From positions 121,373-185,372 of the forward strand of contig CAWIDS010000003.1 of NCBI GenBank assembly GCA_963834935.1: a stretch of DNA of 64,000 nt. The letters run 5' to 3'. The position numbers were made by a program, and so were the translations under genes. Shown piece after piece: positions 10,703 to 60,500 of this stretch (position 1 is its first letter; every line of letters starts with the position of its first letter). This DNA is from Candidatus Nomurabacteria bacterium (GTDB taxonomy: Bacteria > Patescibacteriota > Minisyncoccia > Phycocordibacterales > CALRBL01). Under the pieces are notes generated by a model. It had not been told where the DNA came from, made no database searches, and saw nothing but the letters and a program-made list of their open reading frames with translations.

Positions 10703-11059
10703 CTATTGGGAGCCAGTAGGAACTTGGTTCGGAATCTGGACAGTGTTGTTGTTCAAACCGATAGTGTTCGAAAGGATGCGCACGAGTCCCCAGACCGAGG
10801 TCATGATGAAGATGATGACGATTCCGAGGATGATGGTGTTTCGAGCCTCCTTTATCTTGTCAGGATCTCCGCCGGCAGTGACATATCGGAGAAGTCCGAA
10901 GATGAATACGAGCACCGCTACTCCGATAACGAACGGTATAAGCTTGTTAATGAAAGAGCTTATGCCTGTGAGGAAATCGCCGTTCGACAAATCAAGTGCC
11001 TGGGCGAAAAGCAACCCTGGAAGAAGCAACAATGCGAGTGAACCTAAAAATTTTTTCAT
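10703..11059 (-). CDS. small two-TM protein with signal peptide, paralog 2 of 6 (VirB2/TrbC-like)
   Basis: 118 aa. Signal-peptide-like N-terminus, then IPFVIGVAVLVFIFGLLRYVTAGGDPDKIKEARNTIILGIVIIFIMTSVWGLVRILSNTI, which is the shared core of the family. Confidence 0.65.
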   Translation of the reverse strand: MKKFLGSLALLLLPGLLFAQALDLSNGDFLTGISSFINKLIPFVIGVAVLVFIFGLLRYVTAGGDPDKIKEARNTIILGIVIIFIMTSVWGLVRILSNTIGLNNNTVQIPNQVPTGSQ

Positions 11060-11135
11060 ACGATAAATTAATTTCTTATAATAAGCTTAAGTGTAGCACA
11101 ACTGCCAATCTCCACAATAGGATTTATCCGAAAGC

Positions 11136-11474
11136 CTAGCTGACGGTATTGTTATGGCTGCCGTCAACGCCGTCGATATTCTTGGCGCCGGGAACCTGCG
11201 GTATCTCATCCGAACTAGGAGTGGTGTTTGAAAGCATGATGGTATTTGAAATTACTCGGACCAATCCCCAGACGCACGTCATGACGAAGATGATGACTAT
11301 CCCCATGATTATGCTGTCACGCGCTTCCTTTATGGTATCGGAATCTCCCCCCGCCCTGATGTATTTCAAAAGGCCGAATACGAAGATAAGCACAGCGACA
11401 CCAATGATGACGTAGATCGTCTGATTGATGAATTTGGTGATAGTAGCAATTGATGTGGTGGCATCAGTGAACAT
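11136..11474 (-). CDS. small two-TM protein, paralog 3 of 6
   Basis: 112 aa. The core YVIIGVAVLIFVFGLLKYIRAGGDSDTIKEARDSIIMGIVIIFVMTCVWGLVRVISNTI is over 70% identical to paralog 2. Confidence 0.65.
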   Translation of the reverse strand: MFTDATTSIATITKFINQTIYVIIGVAVLIFVFGLLKYIRAGGDSDTIKEARDSIIMGIVIIFVMTCVWGLVRVISNTIMLSNTTPSSDEIPQVPGAKNIDGVDGSHNNTVS

Positions 11475-11480
11475 TTGTGT

Positions 11481-11756
11481 TTATTTTAGCTGAGGGACAG
11501 TATAGCCATTCGAGAAGAAGGTGTTGACGAGGATGTGAACAAGTCCCCATACGGATATCATAACGAAAAGGGCTATGATGCCGAAGATGATGTAATTGCG
11601 CGCCTCCTTGACCGCGTCCGAATCCCCTCCTGCCGACATGTACTTCAGAAGGCCGAAGATGAACAGAAGCACGGCGACACCGATAATGAGCGGGATAAGA
11701 AGATTGATCGAATTAGTGAAGAAAGAAACTACGCATTTGAAATCAGTACAATTCAT
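11481..11756 (-). CDS. small two-TM protein, paralog 4 of 6
   Basis: 91 aa. Core IPLIIGVAVLLFIFGLLKYMSAGGDSDAVKEARNYIIFGIIALFVMISVWGLVHILVNT. Confidence 0.65.
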   Translation of the reverse strand: MNCTDFKCVVSFFTNSINLLIPLIIGVAVLLFIFGLLKYMSAGGDSDAVKEARNYIIFGIIALFVMISVWGLVHILVNTFFSNGYTVPQLK

Positions 11757-13971: not shown

Positions 13972-14529
13972 TTACATTTTCCGAAATACCAGCCCATAAT
14001 GGTGATCACCTGCGAAAAAATTCTTTTCCTTGACGAAGCCGACGAGGCTTGCGAGCTTTTCCACATGCTCTTCCGTGAAAAGATGATCTGCGCGCGGGCC
14101 GATGCCTTTCTCGCTCTCGCCATTGCGCGCCTTCCAATCGATCACTATCATCTTTCCGCCGTTCTTCAGGATGCGGTATGCATGAGAGAAAACGAACGAC
14201 TTGTCCTTGAGCAAAAAGACGGTGTTTGCGACAAGCACTCGGTCGATCTTTTCGGATGAGAGTATGCCTTCGGGCAATGCAAGGTCAGCCTTGATCACCC
14301 TTATGTGCCCCCATTCATTCTTTTTGGATTCGTTCGAGATTAAAGAAAGCAATTCTTCGTCATTATCAAAAGCATACACCCTTCCATACGGGCCGACGCG
14401 ATGCGCGAGAAGATAAGTGAAATGTCCGGCGCCTGATCCGAAATCGGCGACGTGCATCCCTTCGGCAACATTGAAATGTTCAAGCACTTTTTGAGGATCT
14501 AAGAAAACCATGTGGCAATTATACCACAA
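13972..14529 (-). CDS. class I SAM-dependent methyltransferase
   Basis: VADFGSGAGHFT (motif I) and a Rossmann-fold pattern. Confidence 0.7.
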   Translation of the reverse strand: MWYNCHMVFLDPQKVLEHFNVAEGMHVADFGSGAGHFTYLLAHRVGPYGRVYAFDNDEELLSLISNESKKNEWGHIRVIKADLALPEGILSSEKIDRVLVANTVFLLKDKSFVFSHAYRILKNGGKMIVIDWKARNGESEKGIGPRADHLFTEEHVEKLASLVGFVKEKNFFAGDHHYGLVFRKM

Positions 14530-17974: not shown

Positions 17975-18044
17975 GAAGGAATAATAGCACAGTGTATTTA
18001 CAAGTAAAAGAGAATATTTTAAACATCCTCCCAAGTGAGAATCA

Positions 18045-18077
18045 ATTATTTCTTAAAGAATTGGTTTATGGTATAAT
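18045..18077 (+). promoter_or_regulatory. extended -10 promoter (TGgTATAAT) preceding the 16S-like element
   Basis: atggTATAATtgc with TG two bases upstream of TATAAT; weak -35 (TTTCTT or TTAAAG). Confidence 0.4.
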
Positions 18078-18099
18078 TGCGCCAGGTGCCCCGCTGGAC

Positions 18100-18350
18100 A
18101 TTTAATGGGGAAGCGAACGCATGTGTAACTAGAATAGTCGAGAAGTGGGGGTGATTTGCCGAAAGGTAAAAACAAACCGCATGTGGCCCCTCTCTATATG
18201 AGAGGACGTTAAAGTCTGTTGTTCACGCAGCAGATGCTTCTTGATGGGCTCATGTCCCGTAGCCTGTTGGTGGAGGTAATGGCTCACCAAAGCTTCGACG
18301 GGTAGTCGATGGTTGAAAAATCATTGACCTTCAATCAGCCAAAAACACCT
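18100..18350 (+). ncRNA. 16S rRNA 5'-domain-like fragment (about E. coli positions 100-310), diverged, not part of a full rRNA operon
   Basis: Alignable by eye to 16S: GAAGCGAACGCATGTGTAAC ~ GGCGGACGGGTGAGTAAT; GTGGGGGTGATTTGCCGAAAGGTAAAAACAAACCGCAT ~ GGGGGATAACTACTGGAAACGGTAGCTAATACCGCAT; GATGGGCTCATGTCCCGTAGCCTGTTGGTGGAGGTAATGGCTCACCAAAGC ~ GATGGGATTAGCTAGTAGGTGGGGTAACGGCTCACCTAGGC. A terminator follows. Confidence 0.5.
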
Positions 18351-18351
18351 G

Positions 18352-18386
18352 CCGCGCAGCCTTCGGGCTGCGCGGTCCTTTTTTTA
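18352..18386 (+). terminator. rho-independent terminator (ccgcgcagccttcgggctgcgcgg plus T7)
   Basis: Perfect 10-bp GC stem with a UUCG loop, then ttttttt, closing the 16S-like transcript before the rpsA promoter (TTGCTT..TAAAAT at about 18404-18430). Confidence 0.65.
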
Positions 18387-18516
18387 TATTTCGCTTGCTT
18401 TCTTGCTTCTTGCGGCCTTTTGTGTAAAATCTACCTATTAATCAGTGCTTCTCGGTAACCCCGCCCTTGTCTCGATAGCTACGCAGGCGGAACCGTCTTG
18501 TACAACAAATATATAT

Positions 18517-19629
18517 ATGGTTACAACAGAAGAAAAGTTGGAAGAAAGTGCAGTAGTCGAGACAAAGAAATTGAGTTTGATGGATAAGTTTCTCTTGGAA
18601 AGCGTTACCCCTCCTGCAGAAGGAGACATCGTCGAAGGTCCGGTTATCGAGGCGCGAAAGGATCGCGTATTCGTCGATTTGCATCCCTATGGAACTGGTA
18701 TCATTTTCGGACGGGAATTCATCAATGCCCGCGACATCATACGGAAGGTCAACATCGGCGATAATATCGCAGCTAAGGTCATTTCCGTAGAAAACGACGA
18801 GGGTTACATCGAGCTTTCGCTCAAGGAAGCAAAGCAAGCGCTCATCTGGAGCGATGCCGAAGCAGCTATCCGCGACAAGACGACCTTCGACCTTGCAGTT
18901 GTCGAGGCAAACAAGGGAGGACTTATCCTCTCATGGCAAGGAATTCAGGGATTCCTTCCCGCTTCGCAGCTCAAGAACGATCACTACCCTCGCGTAGCGG
19001 ACGGCGACAAGGATCGCATTCTCGAAGAGCTCAGAAAATTAGTCGGAACCAAGATTCCAGTCATAATCATTTCCGCTCTTCCCAAGGAAGGAAAATTGAT
19101 CTTCTCAGAAAAAGATCCTGAATCGAAAGAAAAAGAAAAGATCGTCAGCAAATACGAAGTCGGAGAGGAATTGAACGGTGTTGTCACCGGTATCGTTGAT
19201 TTCGGAGTGTTCGTCAAAGTGGAAGAAGGCCTTGAAGGGCTTGTCCACATCTCTGAGATAGACTGGGCTCTCGTCGAGGATCCGAGAGCACTCTTCAAAG
19301 TCGGCGACAAGGTGAAAGTGAAGGTCATCGAGATCAAGGAAAACAAGATTTCCCTCTCAATCAAAGCCCTCAAGGAGAATCCTTGGAAAGGCGCCGAGAA
19401 GAAATACAAGAAAGATGACATCGTCGAAGGCGTCGTCATCAAGTTCAACCGCCATGGCGCGCTTGCTTCGATAGAAGAAGGTATCGCCGGACTCGTGCAC
19501 GTATCCGAATTTGGCAGCGAAGAAAAGCTCCGATCGACTCTCGAGCTCGGAAAGTCATACACCTTCAAGATCAGCCTCTTCGAGGCGAAGGATCAGAAGA
19601 TGACACTGTCGTTCGTCGAAAAGAAATAA
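18517..19629 (+). CDS. rpsA: 30S ribosomal protein S1 (four S1 domains)
   Basis: Repeated S1 domains (GDIVEGPVIEARKDRVFVDL.., ..GFLPASQLK.., ..GVVTGIVDFGVFVKV.., ..GVVIKFNRHGALASI..). Start chosen at MVTTEEKL; the ORF track starts at GTG 18445. Confidence 0.85.
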   Translation: MVTTEEKLEESAVVETKKLSLMDKFLLESVTPPAEGDIVEGPVIEARKDRVFVDLHPYGTGIIFGREFINARDIIRKVNIGDNIAAKVISVENDEGYIELSLKEAKQALIWSDAEAAIRDKTTFDLAVVEANKGGLILSWQGIQGFLPASQLKNDHYPRVADGDKDRILEELRKLVGTKIPVIIISALPKEGKLIFSEKDPESKEKEKIVSKYEVGEELNGVVTGIVDFGVFVKVEEGLEGLVHISEIDWALVEDPRALFKVGDKVKVKVIEIKENKISLSIKALKENPWKGAEKKYKKDDIVEGVVIKFNRHGALASIEEGIAGLVHVSEFGSEEKLRSTLELGKSYTFKISLFEAKDQKMTLSFVEKK

Positions 19630-25131: not shown

Positions 25132-26307
25132 ATGCCACAAATCAAACCTGAAGTCGAAACATTCGCCCGCATCAAAGTCGTCGGAGTAGGAGGATCGGGA
25201 AAAAATGCCGTCAACCACATGGTAAATGCCAAGGTAAAAGGCATCGATTTTATCTCCATAAACACTGATGCCCAGGACCTTCACCACTCACTCGCAAAAA
25301 AGAAGATCCACGTCGGCAAAAACCTCACTCGAGGCCTTGGCGCCGGAATGAATCCTGAAATCGGCAAGCGTGCCGCTGAAGAGACTCGCGAGGAAATCCA
25401 AGAAGCGCTCAAGGGTGCGGACATGGTATTCGTCACCGGAGGAATGGGCGGAGGAACCGGAACCGGAGCAAGTCCGATCGTAGCAAAGATCGCCAAAGAG
25501 ATGGGCGCTCTTACCATCGGCGTCGTTACTAAGCCTTTCGGCTTCGAAGGCGCTCTCCGCAACAAGCTCGCTGAACAGGGTCTCGCCGAGCTTCGCGACT
25601 CTGTCGATGCTCTTGTAGTCATTCCTAACGACCGCTTGATGATGGTTATTTCGAAGGAAACTACCGCCAAGCAAGCCTTCACTATGAGCGATGAAGTACT
25701 CAAGCAGGCTGTGGAAGGCATTTCTGACCTCATCACTACCCCAGGTTCGATCGCCAACATCGACTTTGCCGACATCCGCGCTATCCTCGACAATGCAGGC
25801 TCTGCTCTCATGGGTGTAGGAACAGGAATCGGTGAAAAGCGAGCGGAAGATGCCGCAAAAGCAGCCATCAATTCCCCTCTTATTGACCTTTCGATTACCG
25901 GAGCTCGGGGAGTGCTCTTCTCTATCGCCGGCGGTGACGACCTTACCATGTTCGAGATCCAGGATGCTGCCCGCGTCATCACCGAATCGATCGACCCCGA
26001 AGCCAAGGTCATCTTCGGTACGGTCAAGGATGACAAGCTTAAGAAAGGCGAACTCAAGATTACGGTCATCGCCTCAGGCTTCCCTGAAGTCACCACTAAT
26101 CCTAAAAAGGGTCTCTTCGGCAGCATCGAGGAAGAGCCTCGCGGAAAGATTTACAATACCCTTCAAAGCCTTACCAAGGACATAAAGCCTCTCTCTGAGC
26201 GCGCTTCCGAAGAAAAGGAAGAGACAAAGCTCGAACCTTCATCAGGAATGGAAGACGATAAGGACGACTGGGGCGCCGTTCCAGCATTCTTAAGGAGAAA
26301 AAAGTAA
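25132..26307 (+). CDS. ftsZ: cell division protein FtsZ
   Basis: VVGVGGSGKNAVNHM and the tubulin signature GGGTGTGASP. Confidence 0.95.
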   Translation: MPQIKPEVETFARIKVVGVGGSGKNAVNHMVNAKVKGIDFISINTDAQDLHHSLAKKKIHVGKNLTRGLGAGMNPEIGKRAAEETREEIQEALKGADMVFVTGGMGGGTGTGASPIVAKIAKEMGALTIGVVTKPFGFEGALRNKLAEQGLAELRDSVDALVVIPNDRLMMVISKETTAKQAFTMSDEVLKQAVEGISDLITTPGSIANIDFADIRAILDNAGSALMGVGTGIGEKRAEDAAKAAINSPLIDLSITGARGVLFSIAGGDDLTMFEIQDAARVITESIDPEAKVIFGTVKDDKLKKGELKITVIASGFPEVTTNPKKGLFGSIEEEPRGKIYNTLQSLTKDIKPLSERASEEKEETKLEPSSGMEDDKDDWGAVPAFLRRKK

Positions 26308-26436
26308 AAACTCAAAATACAAAACACTCGTTTTAAAAAGACCTTGCGAGGCTCGACGGAGCGAGCACGAGGAATTTTCTAGCAGGAAAATATCCGTGTC
26401 TTTTTAAAACGAGTGTTTTGTATTTTGAGTTTTTAC
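26304..26436. repeat. perfect 39-bp inverted repeat (arms 26304-26342 and 26398-26436) around a 55-nt spacer
   Basis: The left arm gtaaaaactcaaaatacaaaacactcgttttaaaaagac equals the reverse complement of the right arm. The left arm begins inside the ftsZ stop codon and the right arm is followed by tttttactttttacc. Confidence 0.9.
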
Positions 26437-26461
26437 TTTTTACCTTTATAATGCTGGAACA

Positions 26462-36970: not shown

Positions 36971-36984
36971 ATGCTGGCATTATA

Positions 36985-37368
36985 TCATTTCTTGAATACG
37001 CCTGTCACCTTTTGCCAGAAACTTCCCCACCACGAAGTCGTAGCGGTCGAGGTCGGCGTATCTTCAGGCTTGTCGACGATGACCATAATATTCTCGCCGT
37101 CCTTGGCTACCTGGAATTTGTCGCGTATTTCCTCTTCCACACCTGAACTGCTCTGCAGGCGTGTCGTCTCATCCTGAAGGCTTTGCTGACGCTGCATGAG
37201 ATCGTTCAATTCAGCCTGAGCACGAGCGGCATTCTCGCTGCTTTCCTTTTCTTTCTGGTAAAGGCTCCAATTGCCGCGTATGAGAAGGAGAATGACAAGT
37301 GCCATTCCTGCAATCATAAGCTTCGGGCGGAGCGAACCTTTCTTTTTCTTCTGTTGAAATTCCTTCAT
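36985..37368 (-). CDS. septum-formation initiator-like (FtsB/DivIC family) protein
   Basis: N-terminal TM helix followed by a coiled coil (..AQAELNDLMQRQQSLQDETTRLQ..). Confidence 0.45.
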   Translation of the reverse strand: MKEFQQKKKKGSLRPKLMIAGMALVILLLIRGNWSLYQKEKESSENAARAQAELNDLMQRQQSLQDETTRLQSSSGVEEEIRDKFQVAKDGENIMVIVDKPEDTPTSTATTSWWGSFWQKVTGVFKK

Positions 37369-39819: not shown

Positions 39820-39856
39820 TCCAGAAAAAGCCAAATCCCGCCTTTCAGCGGGATTT
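39820..39856 (-). terminator. terminator of rnpB (aaatcccgctgaaaggcgggattt plus GGCTTTTTCTGG on the minus strand)
   Basis: Hairpin with T-tract immediately 3' of the RNase P RNA. Confidence 0.6.
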
Positions 39857-40152
39857 GGGTGCGTCTATAAGCCGAATTCTGTATTGGACGATCATTTATC
39901 TGGGCCTTTGATCACTCAAAGGCTCGAGCGGCACTCGCCGATTACCGCCGTTTCGGGCATAAATCAGCGCACGGCCTTGCACAGAAGTAAGGATTTTGCC
40001 GTTTCACCCTCCGCTTGCGCGGAGGCTCGTCTCTGTTCGCACCTCGGCCATCGCTGGCGACGGGAATTACCCGCTACTCTTGGCTCTTGCGAGCCGCTGT
40101 GTTCGGACTTTCCTCCCTGCCTTTCGGCAAGAGCGATCATCTGGCGCACTCG
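39857..40152 (-). ncRNA. rnpB: RNase P RNA (bacterial type A-like, compact)
   Basis: On the minus strand: GAGGAAAGUCCGAACACAG (P4 5' strand), GCGGGUAAUUCCCG (L15-like GGUAA), GGAGGGUGAAACGGC (J11/12), and GGCCCAGAUAAAUGAUCGUCCAAUACAGAAUUCGGCUUA, which matches E. coli GGCCUAGAUGAAUGACUGUCCACGACAGAACCCGGCUUA. P4 covaries (GUCCGAAC with GAAUUCGGCU versus GUCCGGGC with GAACCCGGCU). Confidence 0.85.
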
Positions 40153-49125: not shown

Positions 49126-49238
49126 AGATTTAATGGGTTAAAATTGGTAACTGAAGCATTATAACACATTTGCTGTTTGGTCGTCATGAAAAGAAGTTTG
49201 AATTGTCCATATAAGGTAAATCAAAGATTGAGCATAAA

Positions 49239-52878: not shown

Positions 52879-54426
52879 TTACATTATAGCATCTTTCTTA
52901 TGAAATTTCGGCGTAACCCAGAAACCCATGTATCTTCCGAAAAAGAGGCGCGTCTCGGCATCAAGGCCGGGAACTGCTCCGAAAATGATGATGGTGATAG
53001 GTACAAGCACCCACTGCAGGAACATCACCAGCTGGTCGCGCCTGCGCTGGCGGCTGGGAAGCTTCGGCAGGAAGTTCAGGAAGACGAAAGCGCTGACGAC
53101 AAGGCCGGACATGGCGAGGATCATCAGGTTCCGAGTGATGATCGGCAGATTGTAAGAGAGGACCGTGCTATTGAAATCCTTTCCGCCGAGAATCAGAGGT
53201 AGCCATCCGAGAAGCAGGATCATTATCGGGTTGGTAGCAAGAGACCAATACCCTTCGAGCTGGGTGAAGGTTACCCGTATCTTCTTCCATAGAGGAATCT
53301 GCCTGTTCTTCATGAAGCTGAAGAGGATGTATGGCACGTTCTCTGATCCCCATGCCCAGCGCCGCTGCTGCTTGTAGATATTCTTCATCGTCTGCCAGAA
53401 TGTCGGCGCAAGGTTGGCATCCATGGAAACTGGGTATGAAAGGGAGATCGTGCGGTAATCGCCATCGTAAGCCATGTAGGCATTCCAAAAGATGCGTGAA
53501 TCCTCCGACACCATGTTCTTCTGCCAGAAGCCGATATCATGAAGGGTCTTGAACGATACCGTATGTGAGGAGAACGTGACGTTCTTCTCCGGGCGCTCTT
53601 GCTGGATCATCTGCCAGAACGTGCTCGATCCGGCGACAACTCGCGAGAAGGCAGGAGCATCCCAGATATTGTTGTTGAAGAAAGGCACTGGCTGATACGA
53701 AACGCGATAGCGGTCTTCGGCGGTCAGGAAATGCCAGGTGACGCAAAGAAAATAATTCTTGTAGACGGCTGTGTCGATATCGAAAGCTGATACCAAGACG
53801 TCATCATATGAAATGGAATGGGCGTCGAGGATTTTTGCCTGGGCTTCGCGGGCGGCATAGGAAATATTCGAGCCCTTGCCTGCCATCTCGCCAGGGAGAT
53901 CAGCAGGATGCGATGTAACGAGGAAATACCCGAACTTCGAAGCGTGCTTCACGCGTATCTTCTCTGCAATCTCAGCTGCTTCCTTTCCCCGCTTCGCTTC
54001 GCTTGCAAGGACGACGATCATCTTCTTCAAGTCATAGTCGGAATCGATCAATGCAATGATACTTTTTTCTATGGTCTCGAAGTCTTCACTGTAAAAAGGA
54101 AGGATGATCATGTGATAGACGTGCTCGTATCTGAGATTCGAAAGCATCTCCCTCCAGTCGATCACCAACGCATGGTTCATCCTCATCCAGTTGCGGCGAA
54201 GAAAATATGAAAGATAAATGGTCTTCAGGAGCCAATAAAGGTCGAAGACAATGATGAAGATCGAAGCGAAGATGGGAAAGAAATGGGAAAGGATGATGGT
54301 GCCGAGAATGGTTCCCCAGGCTAACGTTCCCGGGACCATTTCGAAAATCCGGTAAACTACCCTGTCAGTTCCAGACAGATCGGAAGCCCTTCCTACGTGA
54401 AAATAAGGAGAATCCTTGTATGGCAT
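52879..54426 (-). CDS. family-2 glycosyltransferase (cellulose-synthase-like processive GT2)
   Basis: Multiple TM helices, D,D,D-type motifs and QQRRW (QxxRW). Start moved to MPYKDSPYF because the ORF-track start overlaps tRNA-Thr. Confidence 0.65.
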   Translation of the reverse strand: MPYKDSPYFHVGRASDLSGTDRVVYRIFEMVPGTLAWGTILGTIILSHFFPIFASIFIIVFDLYWLLKTIYLSYFLRRNWMRMNHALVIDWREMLSNLRYEHVYHMIILPFYSEDFETIEKSIIALIDSDYDLKKMIVVLASEAKRGKEAAEIAEKIRVKHASKFGYFLVTSHPADLPGEMAGKGSNISYAAREAQAKILDAHSISYDDVLVSAFDIDTAVYKNYFLCVTWHFLTAEDRYRVSYQPVPFFNNNIWDAPAFSRVVAGSSTFWQMIQQERPEKNVTFSSHTVSFKTLHDIGFWQKNMVSEDSRIFWNAYMAYDGDYRTISLSYPVSMDANLAPTFWQTMKNIYKQQRRWAWGSENVPYILFSFMKNRQIPLWKKIRVTFTQLEGYWSLATNPIMILLLGWLPLILGGKDFNSTVLSYNLPIITRNLMILAMSGLVVSAFVFLNFLPKLPSRQRRRDQLVMFLQWVLVPITIIIFGAVPGLDAETRLFFGRYMGFWVTPKFHKKDAIM

Positions 54427-60457: not shown

Positions 60458-60500
60458 GCAGGCTATTCTAACATATGATATAATTTTCAGACACAACTAT

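Follow-up and report, generated by a model that had tools for sequence, protein, structure and literature searches.

A degenerate 16S rRNA 5′-domain copy between predicted transcription signals upstream of rpsA in a Paceibacteria genome

The rpsA locus and its transcription signals

We analyzed a 64,000-nt stretch of DNA (the window) in which a non-coding element precedes an rpsA-like gene. The gene order is gyrA (−), a small hypothetical gene (−), an MBL-fold hydrolase gene (−), the element, S1 (+), pth (−), lepB and hisS. The hydrolase gene, with its likely ATG at 17975, is divergent from rpsA, and the S1 homologues place the organism in the Paceibacteria/Parcubacteria-type CPR. An earlier note, made from the sequence alone, had proposed that the element is a stand-alone 16S rRNA 5′-domain-like RNA with its own promoter and terminator. 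The signals around it and the downstream gene are as follows.

18069–18077 (+): extended −10 promoter element TGGTATAAT, a consensus match with a weak −35
18351–18386 (+): intrinsic terminator (terminator scan)
18403–18430 (+): putative rpsA promoter TTGCTT-16-TAAAAT, 3′ of the terminator and outside the element (read from the sequence)
18447–18516 (+): conserved rpsA 5′ UTR leader, GUAACC plus hairpin CCGCC/GGCGG (alignment of relatives)
18517–19629 (+): rpsA-like gene, 370 aa from ATG, four S1 domains (Pfam S1, 5.8e-42; NCBIfam S1 models)

Both transcription signals that the earlier note had assigned to the element were recovered. The extended −10 element TGGTATAAT at 18069–18077 predicts a transcription start near 18084–18086, and the terminator combines an 11-bp stem (nine G-C pairs) with a UUCG loop and a T7 run. 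Promoter and terminator, identified by consensus matches only, thereby bracket a non-coding stretch. The motif TGNTATAAT occurs six times in the window against 1.17 expected, a count that none of 100 shuffles reached, and each of the five other sites immediately precedes a correctly oriented gene or tRNA. These sites are at 14518–14526 (−), 36979–36987 (−), 49158–49166 (−), 52883–52891 (−) and 60476–60484 (+). It is plausible that the motif is a promoter signature in this genome, and its placement suggests that transcription in the CPR genome studied here depends on promoters with an extended −10 and a weak −35. A discrete transcript of ~300 nt that ends before the rpsA promoter is likewise plausible, because an extended −10 lies upstream and a strong intrinsic terminator downstream.

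The rpsA gene appears to have control signals of its own. Its putative promoter is weak by consensus and was not picked up by the scan that listed the terminator; relatives carry TTTACA-N17-TAATCT at the homologous position. The proximal 70 nt before rpsA form a leader that is common to relatives without the element and whose hairpin occurs as CCGCC/GGCGG, UUACC/GGUAA, UCGCU/AGCGA or CCUGC/GCAGG, with double compensatory changes in four of the five pairs. Within this Paceibacteria clade, we observed the leader also at L082 1527–1598, L087 2930–3003, L088 1433–1503, L090 1526–1596, L001 2410–2480, L008 1135–1202 and L021 2410–2475. An apparent outer helix reads GCCUUUUGG/CCGAAAGGC in L088 and GACAUCU/AGAUGUC in L008. 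The leader has no Rfam match and is a candidate S1 autoregulatory leader. Because rpsA has this conserved, covarying leader downstream of the terminator, its regulation is predicted to be independent of the rRNA-like element.

Elsewhere in the window, we found a compact class A RNase P RNA at 39852–40152 (−) (301 nt, 133 bits), several of whose helices are shorter than in the 367-position model. Three diverged direct repeats of ~173 nt (69–71% identity, spacings 478 and 279 nt) at 10760–11689 probably represent a repeated domain in a coding region, and an AT-rich intergenic stretch at 26299–26441 holds an inverted repeat with perfect 44-nt arms that are 55 nt apart.

Homology to 16S rRNA and degeneration

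A whole-window cmscan at gathering thresholds matched the bacterial SSU rRNA model (RF00177, SSU_rRNA_bacteria) at 18108–18369 (+), covering model positions 104–347. The score of 56.9 bits (E = 1.6e-13) is above the Rfam gathering threshold (GA 50), and a local re-scan of the element gave 51.1 bits. The covariance-model check that the earlier note had called for is thus significant. We also built our own HMM, independent of RF00177, from 14 genuine 16S segments; it picked up the same region (18160–18310, E = 7e-13), so that 16S 5′-domain-like homology is upheld by two models. A local scan of the element region returned no credible match to any other Rfam family, its sole extra match being sub-threshold and to the terminator hairpin.

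The match is local and spans ~16% of the SSU molecule (model 104–347 of 1533), corresponding roughly to E. coli 16S positions 100–350 and helices H7–H14. Nothing in the element precedes model position 104, which confirms that the canonical 16S 5′ end is missing. A complete SSU would comprise 5′, central, 3′ major and 3′ minor domains, and the element does not. The window holds no 16S gene, and the 515F, 338, 806 and 1492 motifs occur nowhere in its 64,000 nt. A helix map was derived from the cmscan alignment to RF00177.

18108–18302 (+): core, H7 to H11 homologue (cmscan alignment, helix map)
18119–18130/18246–18255 (+): H7, 9/10 pairs canonical
18139–18145/18237–18243 (+): H7, 7/7 pairs canonical
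18147–18180 (+): H8, 9/11 pairs canonical
18186–18209 (+): H9, 8/10 pairs canonical
18214–18235 (+): H10, a lengthened hairpin (helix map, MFE fold)
18256–18302 (+): H11, 13/15 pairs canonical
18305–18328 (+): H12 position, now an uninterrupted 10-bp hairpin capped by a GAAA loop (alignment, fold, helix map)
18329–18350 (+): H13, a degenerate remnant, 3/6 model pairs canonical
18351–18376 (+): H14 position, occupied by the terminator stem-loop and followed by T7

The earlier note had claimed helices h6–h12. The alignment is solid from H7 to H12, while H6 is unsupported beyond a short hairpin. The MFE fold of the RNA strand (−113 kcal/mol, z = −3.74) recovered the H8, H9, H10, H11 and H12 hairpins. 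The near-universal 16S motif that had drawn attention to the element, GTAATGGCTCACCAAAGC, is indeed present at 18274–18291, and the block expected to follow it, GCTGGTCTGAGAGGA, reads GTCGATGGTTGAAAAATCA and is degenerate as described. The terminal hairpin of H11 retains 27 of 28 nt, while the other universal blocks have decayed, with AGCGAA in place of GAGUAA and AACAAACC in place of UAAUACC.

The 3′ part of the match fits weakly over model positions 313–347, where H13 is poor and the terminator stands for H14. The H12 hairpin has the sequence GUCGAUGGUU GAAA AAUCAUUGAC; on its 5′ side, a 2-nt insertion pairs with residues that genuine 16S leaves as a 3-nt bulge, yielding a perfect stem. The universal CUGAGAGG is lost in this region, where the element reads UUGAAAAA, and the H13 remnant is AAUCAGCCAAAAACAC as opposed to the genuine CACUGGGACUGAGACAC. 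The terminator takes the place of the 338–355 region of 16S and sits exactly at the position of H14 (CUCCUACGGGAG). Its loop region, AGCCUUCGGGCU, aligned to model positions 336–347 and CUCCUACGGGAG, and the spacing from H12 is kept within ~2 nt. The terminator may therefore be derived from H14 and built by extending it.

The element is far from a working 16S. Over the same model span, a genuine 16S (L093) scored 208.5 bits with almost all highly conserved positions matching, about four times the score of the element, which is thus about a quarter of that of the genuine segment. Only 68 of 98 highly conserved Rfam consensus positions match in the element, so that ~30% of near-universal nucleotides are altered. 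Compared along the H5–H12 stretch with 12 genuine 16S genes of diverse lineages, the element shows ~51% identity; the same 12 genes share a mean mutual identity of 71% and a minimum of 58%. Not every oddity need have arisen after insertion. CAUG in place of CGCG in H7 and the GUCG...GAAA...CGAC form of H12 may have been inherited from the parent, because both also occur in the real 16S L093. Since the 5′ 100 nt and everything beyond ~350 are missing and ~30% of near-universal nucleotides are changed, we conclude from the alignment that the element cannot serve as ribosomal RNA. This agrees with the earlier note, which had judged it a non-functional 16S. The element combines rRNA homology, truncation and loss of conserved residues, as a partial copy would.

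Base pairs are preserved better than conserved single-stranded residues. Over model positions 104–289, 49 of 56 pairs are canonical, as scored against the Rfam consensus and not against the organism's own parent 16S, in a covariance-model alignment that is fitted to structure and so favours pairing. Among the conserved unpaired positions of H7–H12, 11 of 44 are altered relative to the same consensus. A simple neutral simulation at d = 0.25, the divergence seen at these unpaired sites, left 37–41 of 56 canonical pairs, with P(≥49) = 0.0005–0.011. The excess is not significant at d = 0.15 (P(≥49) = 0.06–0.27), a divergence still within the sampling error of 11/44, and transition-biased drift (G-C to G-U to A-U) keeps pairing without selection.

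Distribution among relatives and in sequence databases

An independent assembly, a Logan contig from run ERR10755936, contains the element with 100% identity and the same flanks; being identical, it adds no covariation information. We then compared the five closest relatives examined (L082, L087, L088, L089 and L090; S1 identity 82–88%). The element is missing upstream of rpsA in all five. Four of them share the MBL-rpsA arrangement, and the upstream neighbour differs in L090. The spacer whose orthologues we compared is 17976–18516 in the window.

The spacers of the relatives have contents of their own. L082 (1264–1595) carries a perfect inverted repeat of ~30 bp, L087 (2528–3000) an 86-aa predicted ORF behind a similar TGATATAAT promoter, and L088 (1156–1500) a 28-bp inverted repeat around ~110 nt. 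The spacer of L089 is only 165 nt long and consists of the rpsA promoter and leader without an insert, and L090 has a short sequence upstream of rpsA, also without an insert. Judged from these sequences, the MBL-rpsA spacer is a hotspot for unrelated lineage-specific inserts. Because relatives without the element hold unrelated DNA in the spacer, the element would be a lineage-specific insertion. For the same reasons, namely that the element is missing in relatives whose spacers hold unrelated inserts, we take its position beside rpsA to be incidental. The earlier note had found this adjacency notable; that suggestion is not supported, as the relatives' spacers lack the element and rpsA has its own promoter and leader past the terminator.

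To extend the comparison, we searched 80 GTDB species loci and 10 further loci with nhmmer, blastn (word size 7) and the real-16S HMM. Neither the element nor 16S similarity was found in the 80 species loci around rpsA (539 kb), so that neither these species nor the five closest relatives examined have the element at the orthologous locus. Across all 90 related loci, there was no homologue outside the same organism and hence no covariation across genomes. Exact 25-mers of the element had no match in JGI metagenomes, three element k-mers had none in IMG/VR, and GenBank phages gave no match by blastn in distant mode. Within the window, we found neither further copies of the element nor target-site duplications or inverted repeats flanking it.

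A relaxed H11 pattern run on metagenomes returned 18 loci, comprising 14 genuine 16S genes from diverse lineages and four phage-like loci with an H11 mimic. None of the 18 is a close parent 16S (best local match, 59 nt at 88%), and the pattern recovered no Paceibacteria 16S from these metagenomes. A literature search on bacterial 16S pseudogenes and rpsA leaders yielded nothing directly comparable.

Origin of the element and comparison with known systems

Taken together, we consider it somewhat better than an even chance that the element is a transcribed, species-specific, degenerate rRNA-derived relic without conserved function, that is, a young, decaying and non-conserved copy of the 16S 5′ domain. 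In one Paceibacteria (CPR) lineage, an ectopic, truncated copy would have entered a hypervariable spacer that separates the divergent MBL-fold hydrolase gene from the rpsA promoter. Its transcript would probably be a stable RNA of ~300 nt with extensive structure, stopping short of the rpsA promoter, and the main effect of its terminator, possibly made from H14, would be to shield rpsA from transcription arriving from upstream. Such a relic presumably has no function in trans.

Several lines of evidence argue for a relic. SSU homology is significant by two independent models, degeneration is clear in both score (51–57 vs 208.5 bits) and identity (~51% vs 71%), and the independent ERR10755936 contig repeats the sequence and its flanks exactly. 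The element is confined to this organism among the relatives' spacers, the 80 GTDB loci, JGI metagenomes, IMG/VR and GenBank phages searched; rpsA retains its own conserved leader 3′ of the terminator, and the spacer demonstrably tolerates junk. A decaying rRNA pseudogene fragment, one of three options offered by the earlier note, is therefore the most likely of them on the grounds of homology, truncation and absence from relatives. Four observations sit less easily with it. The helices are better kept than neutral decay predicts at d = 0.25, H12 was turned into a perfect hairpin by an insertion that pairs with a former bulge, promoter and terminator are both near-consensus, and in compact CPR genomes 300 nt of transcribed junk is somewhat unexpected.

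The better-than-neutral helix retention therefore leaves room for a young rRNA-derived small RNA. A lineage-specific RNA of ~300 nt, exapted from 16S and acting in trans through its H7–H12 fold, could be a decoy or buffer for 5′-domain binding proteins, or a decoy for a factor that targets this region of 16S. We regard this as possible, though on balance unlikely. It would account for a discrete unit with a consensus extended −10, as at five other gene starts, and a strong terminator, for the low folding energy (z = −3.74), for pair retention above neutral expectation (at d = 0.25, not at d = 0.15), for the survival of 27 of 28 nt in the H11 terminal hairpin while other universal blocks degraded, and for the remodelling of H12 into a perfect stem. 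Yet no relative conserves the element, hence covariation evidence is lacking, the spacer takes unrelated inserts in sister lineages, and the junction strands that shape native 5′-domain protein sites (GAGUAA, UAAUACC) are mutated. uS17 and bS20 contact H7, H9 and H11 in published 30S structures. A more specific proposal, in which the H7–H12 fold of a newborn small RNA is selected, titrates uS17/bS20 or another 5′-domain ligand and has a terminator sculpted from H14, appears doubtful; if true, it would show the exaptation of rRNA into a regulatory RNA while it is happening.

A role in cis is very improbable. As a leader or attenuator of rpsA, the rRNA-like domain would bind a ribosomal protein and thereby favour the terminator, with read-through into rpsA otherwise. 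The element does have the same orientation as rpsA, and a terminator does lie between the structured RNA and the gene. S1, however, is not known to bind H7–H12, the fold offers no alternative antiterminator pairing, and the rpsA promoter region and leader hairpin past the terminator are common to relatives without the element. Known ribosomal protein leaders are short, convergent and shared across taxa, not 250-nt homologues found in one species (PMC7247131).

We give still less weight to the idea that the element is a genuine piece of a split 16S that assembles into the ribosome in trans. In its favour, the window contains no 16S gene for comparison, and insertions and atypical processing are well known in the rRNA genes of CPR bacteria; against it, universal residues are lost (GAGUAA, UAAUACC, CUGAGAGG and the 338–355 region), the bit score is about a quarter of a real segment's, and the element is absent in close relatives, which would need an intact 16S. 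Although rRNA regions are frequent misassembly sites in MAGs, an assembly chimera or contamination joining reads of a real rRNA operon is scarcely credible, as the element lies inside the contig between unique, single-copy flanks, is reproduced identically by the second assembly (ERR10755936) and is too degenerate for any organism's real 16S.

If the element is only a relic, as we favour, it still matters in practice, because partial SSU matches of this kind can confuse rRNA-based binning, copy-number estimates and the taxonomy of CPR MAGs. It would also indicate that certain spacers accept rRNA-derived insertions even where the genome is very compact. If instead its structure is selected, the locus would record how ribosomal RNA gave rise to a structured small RNA in a CPR bacterium and would offer a natural construct for studies of autonomous 16S 5′ subdomain folding and ribosomal protein binding.

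Among known systems, the element most directly resembles bacterial 16S (RF00177), in both sequence and secondary structure over model positions 104–347 and, from H7 to H11, helix by helix. It differs in having its own promoter and terminator, in lying outside any rrn operon and in being absent from relatives. rRNA-mimicking leaders of ribosomal protein genes, such as those of S15, S4, L20 and L1 (Meyer 2018; PMC7247131), are likewise rRNA-like RNAs upstream of a ribosomal protein gene and are followed by a terminator. Such leaders are short, local mimics of convergent origin; each binds the product of the gene that it precedes, and their conservation extends over genera or phyla (PMC7247131). 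By contrast, the element is a 250-nt true homologue in one species; a terminator, the rpsA promoter and a separate leader intervene before the gene, and it has no covarying homologues.

A further comparison is provided by the phage-like loci, in which the same H11 terminal hairpin (GUUGGUGAGGUAAUGGCUCACCAA) occurs outside rRNA genes in a folded non-coding module. This module carries H11 only and shares no sequence with the CPR element beyond the H11 hairpin. The H11 copy is 47 nt long (GUUAUCAGCUAGUUGGUGAGGUAAUGGCUCACCAAGGCGACGACGGC), has all pairs canonical and gives a sub-threshold SSU match of 32 bits. Copy and module were located at L109 3982–4028 (IMG/VR), L107 1140–1190 and L191 3001–3137, the last being E. 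coli M37H chromosome 1573975–1574111. The module forms a conserved three-way junction of ~130 nt; at least 81 IMG/VR contigs contain it, as do 111 of 5426 complete E. coli genomes. In lambdoid/phi80-like enterobacterial prophages it belongs to the early-left operon, with the repressor region on one side and gam-recT-exo on the other, and variable genes come after it. It is unannotated, has no Rfam family and might be an RNA that mimics rRNA in antitermination or protein binding.

The closest parallel to our preferred reading is offered by rRNA pseudogenes and partial rRNA copies, with which the element shares truncation, mutation, ectopic position and lineage specificity. Most copies of this kind are neighbours of rrn operons or mobile elements, whereas the element stands alone among core genes of a compact CPR genome, with a promoter-like site before it and a terminator after it. 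The element thus fits the loose, known category of partial rRNA gene copies and pseudogenes, and its isolation among core genes and its neat bracketing by transcription signals are unusual for such copies.
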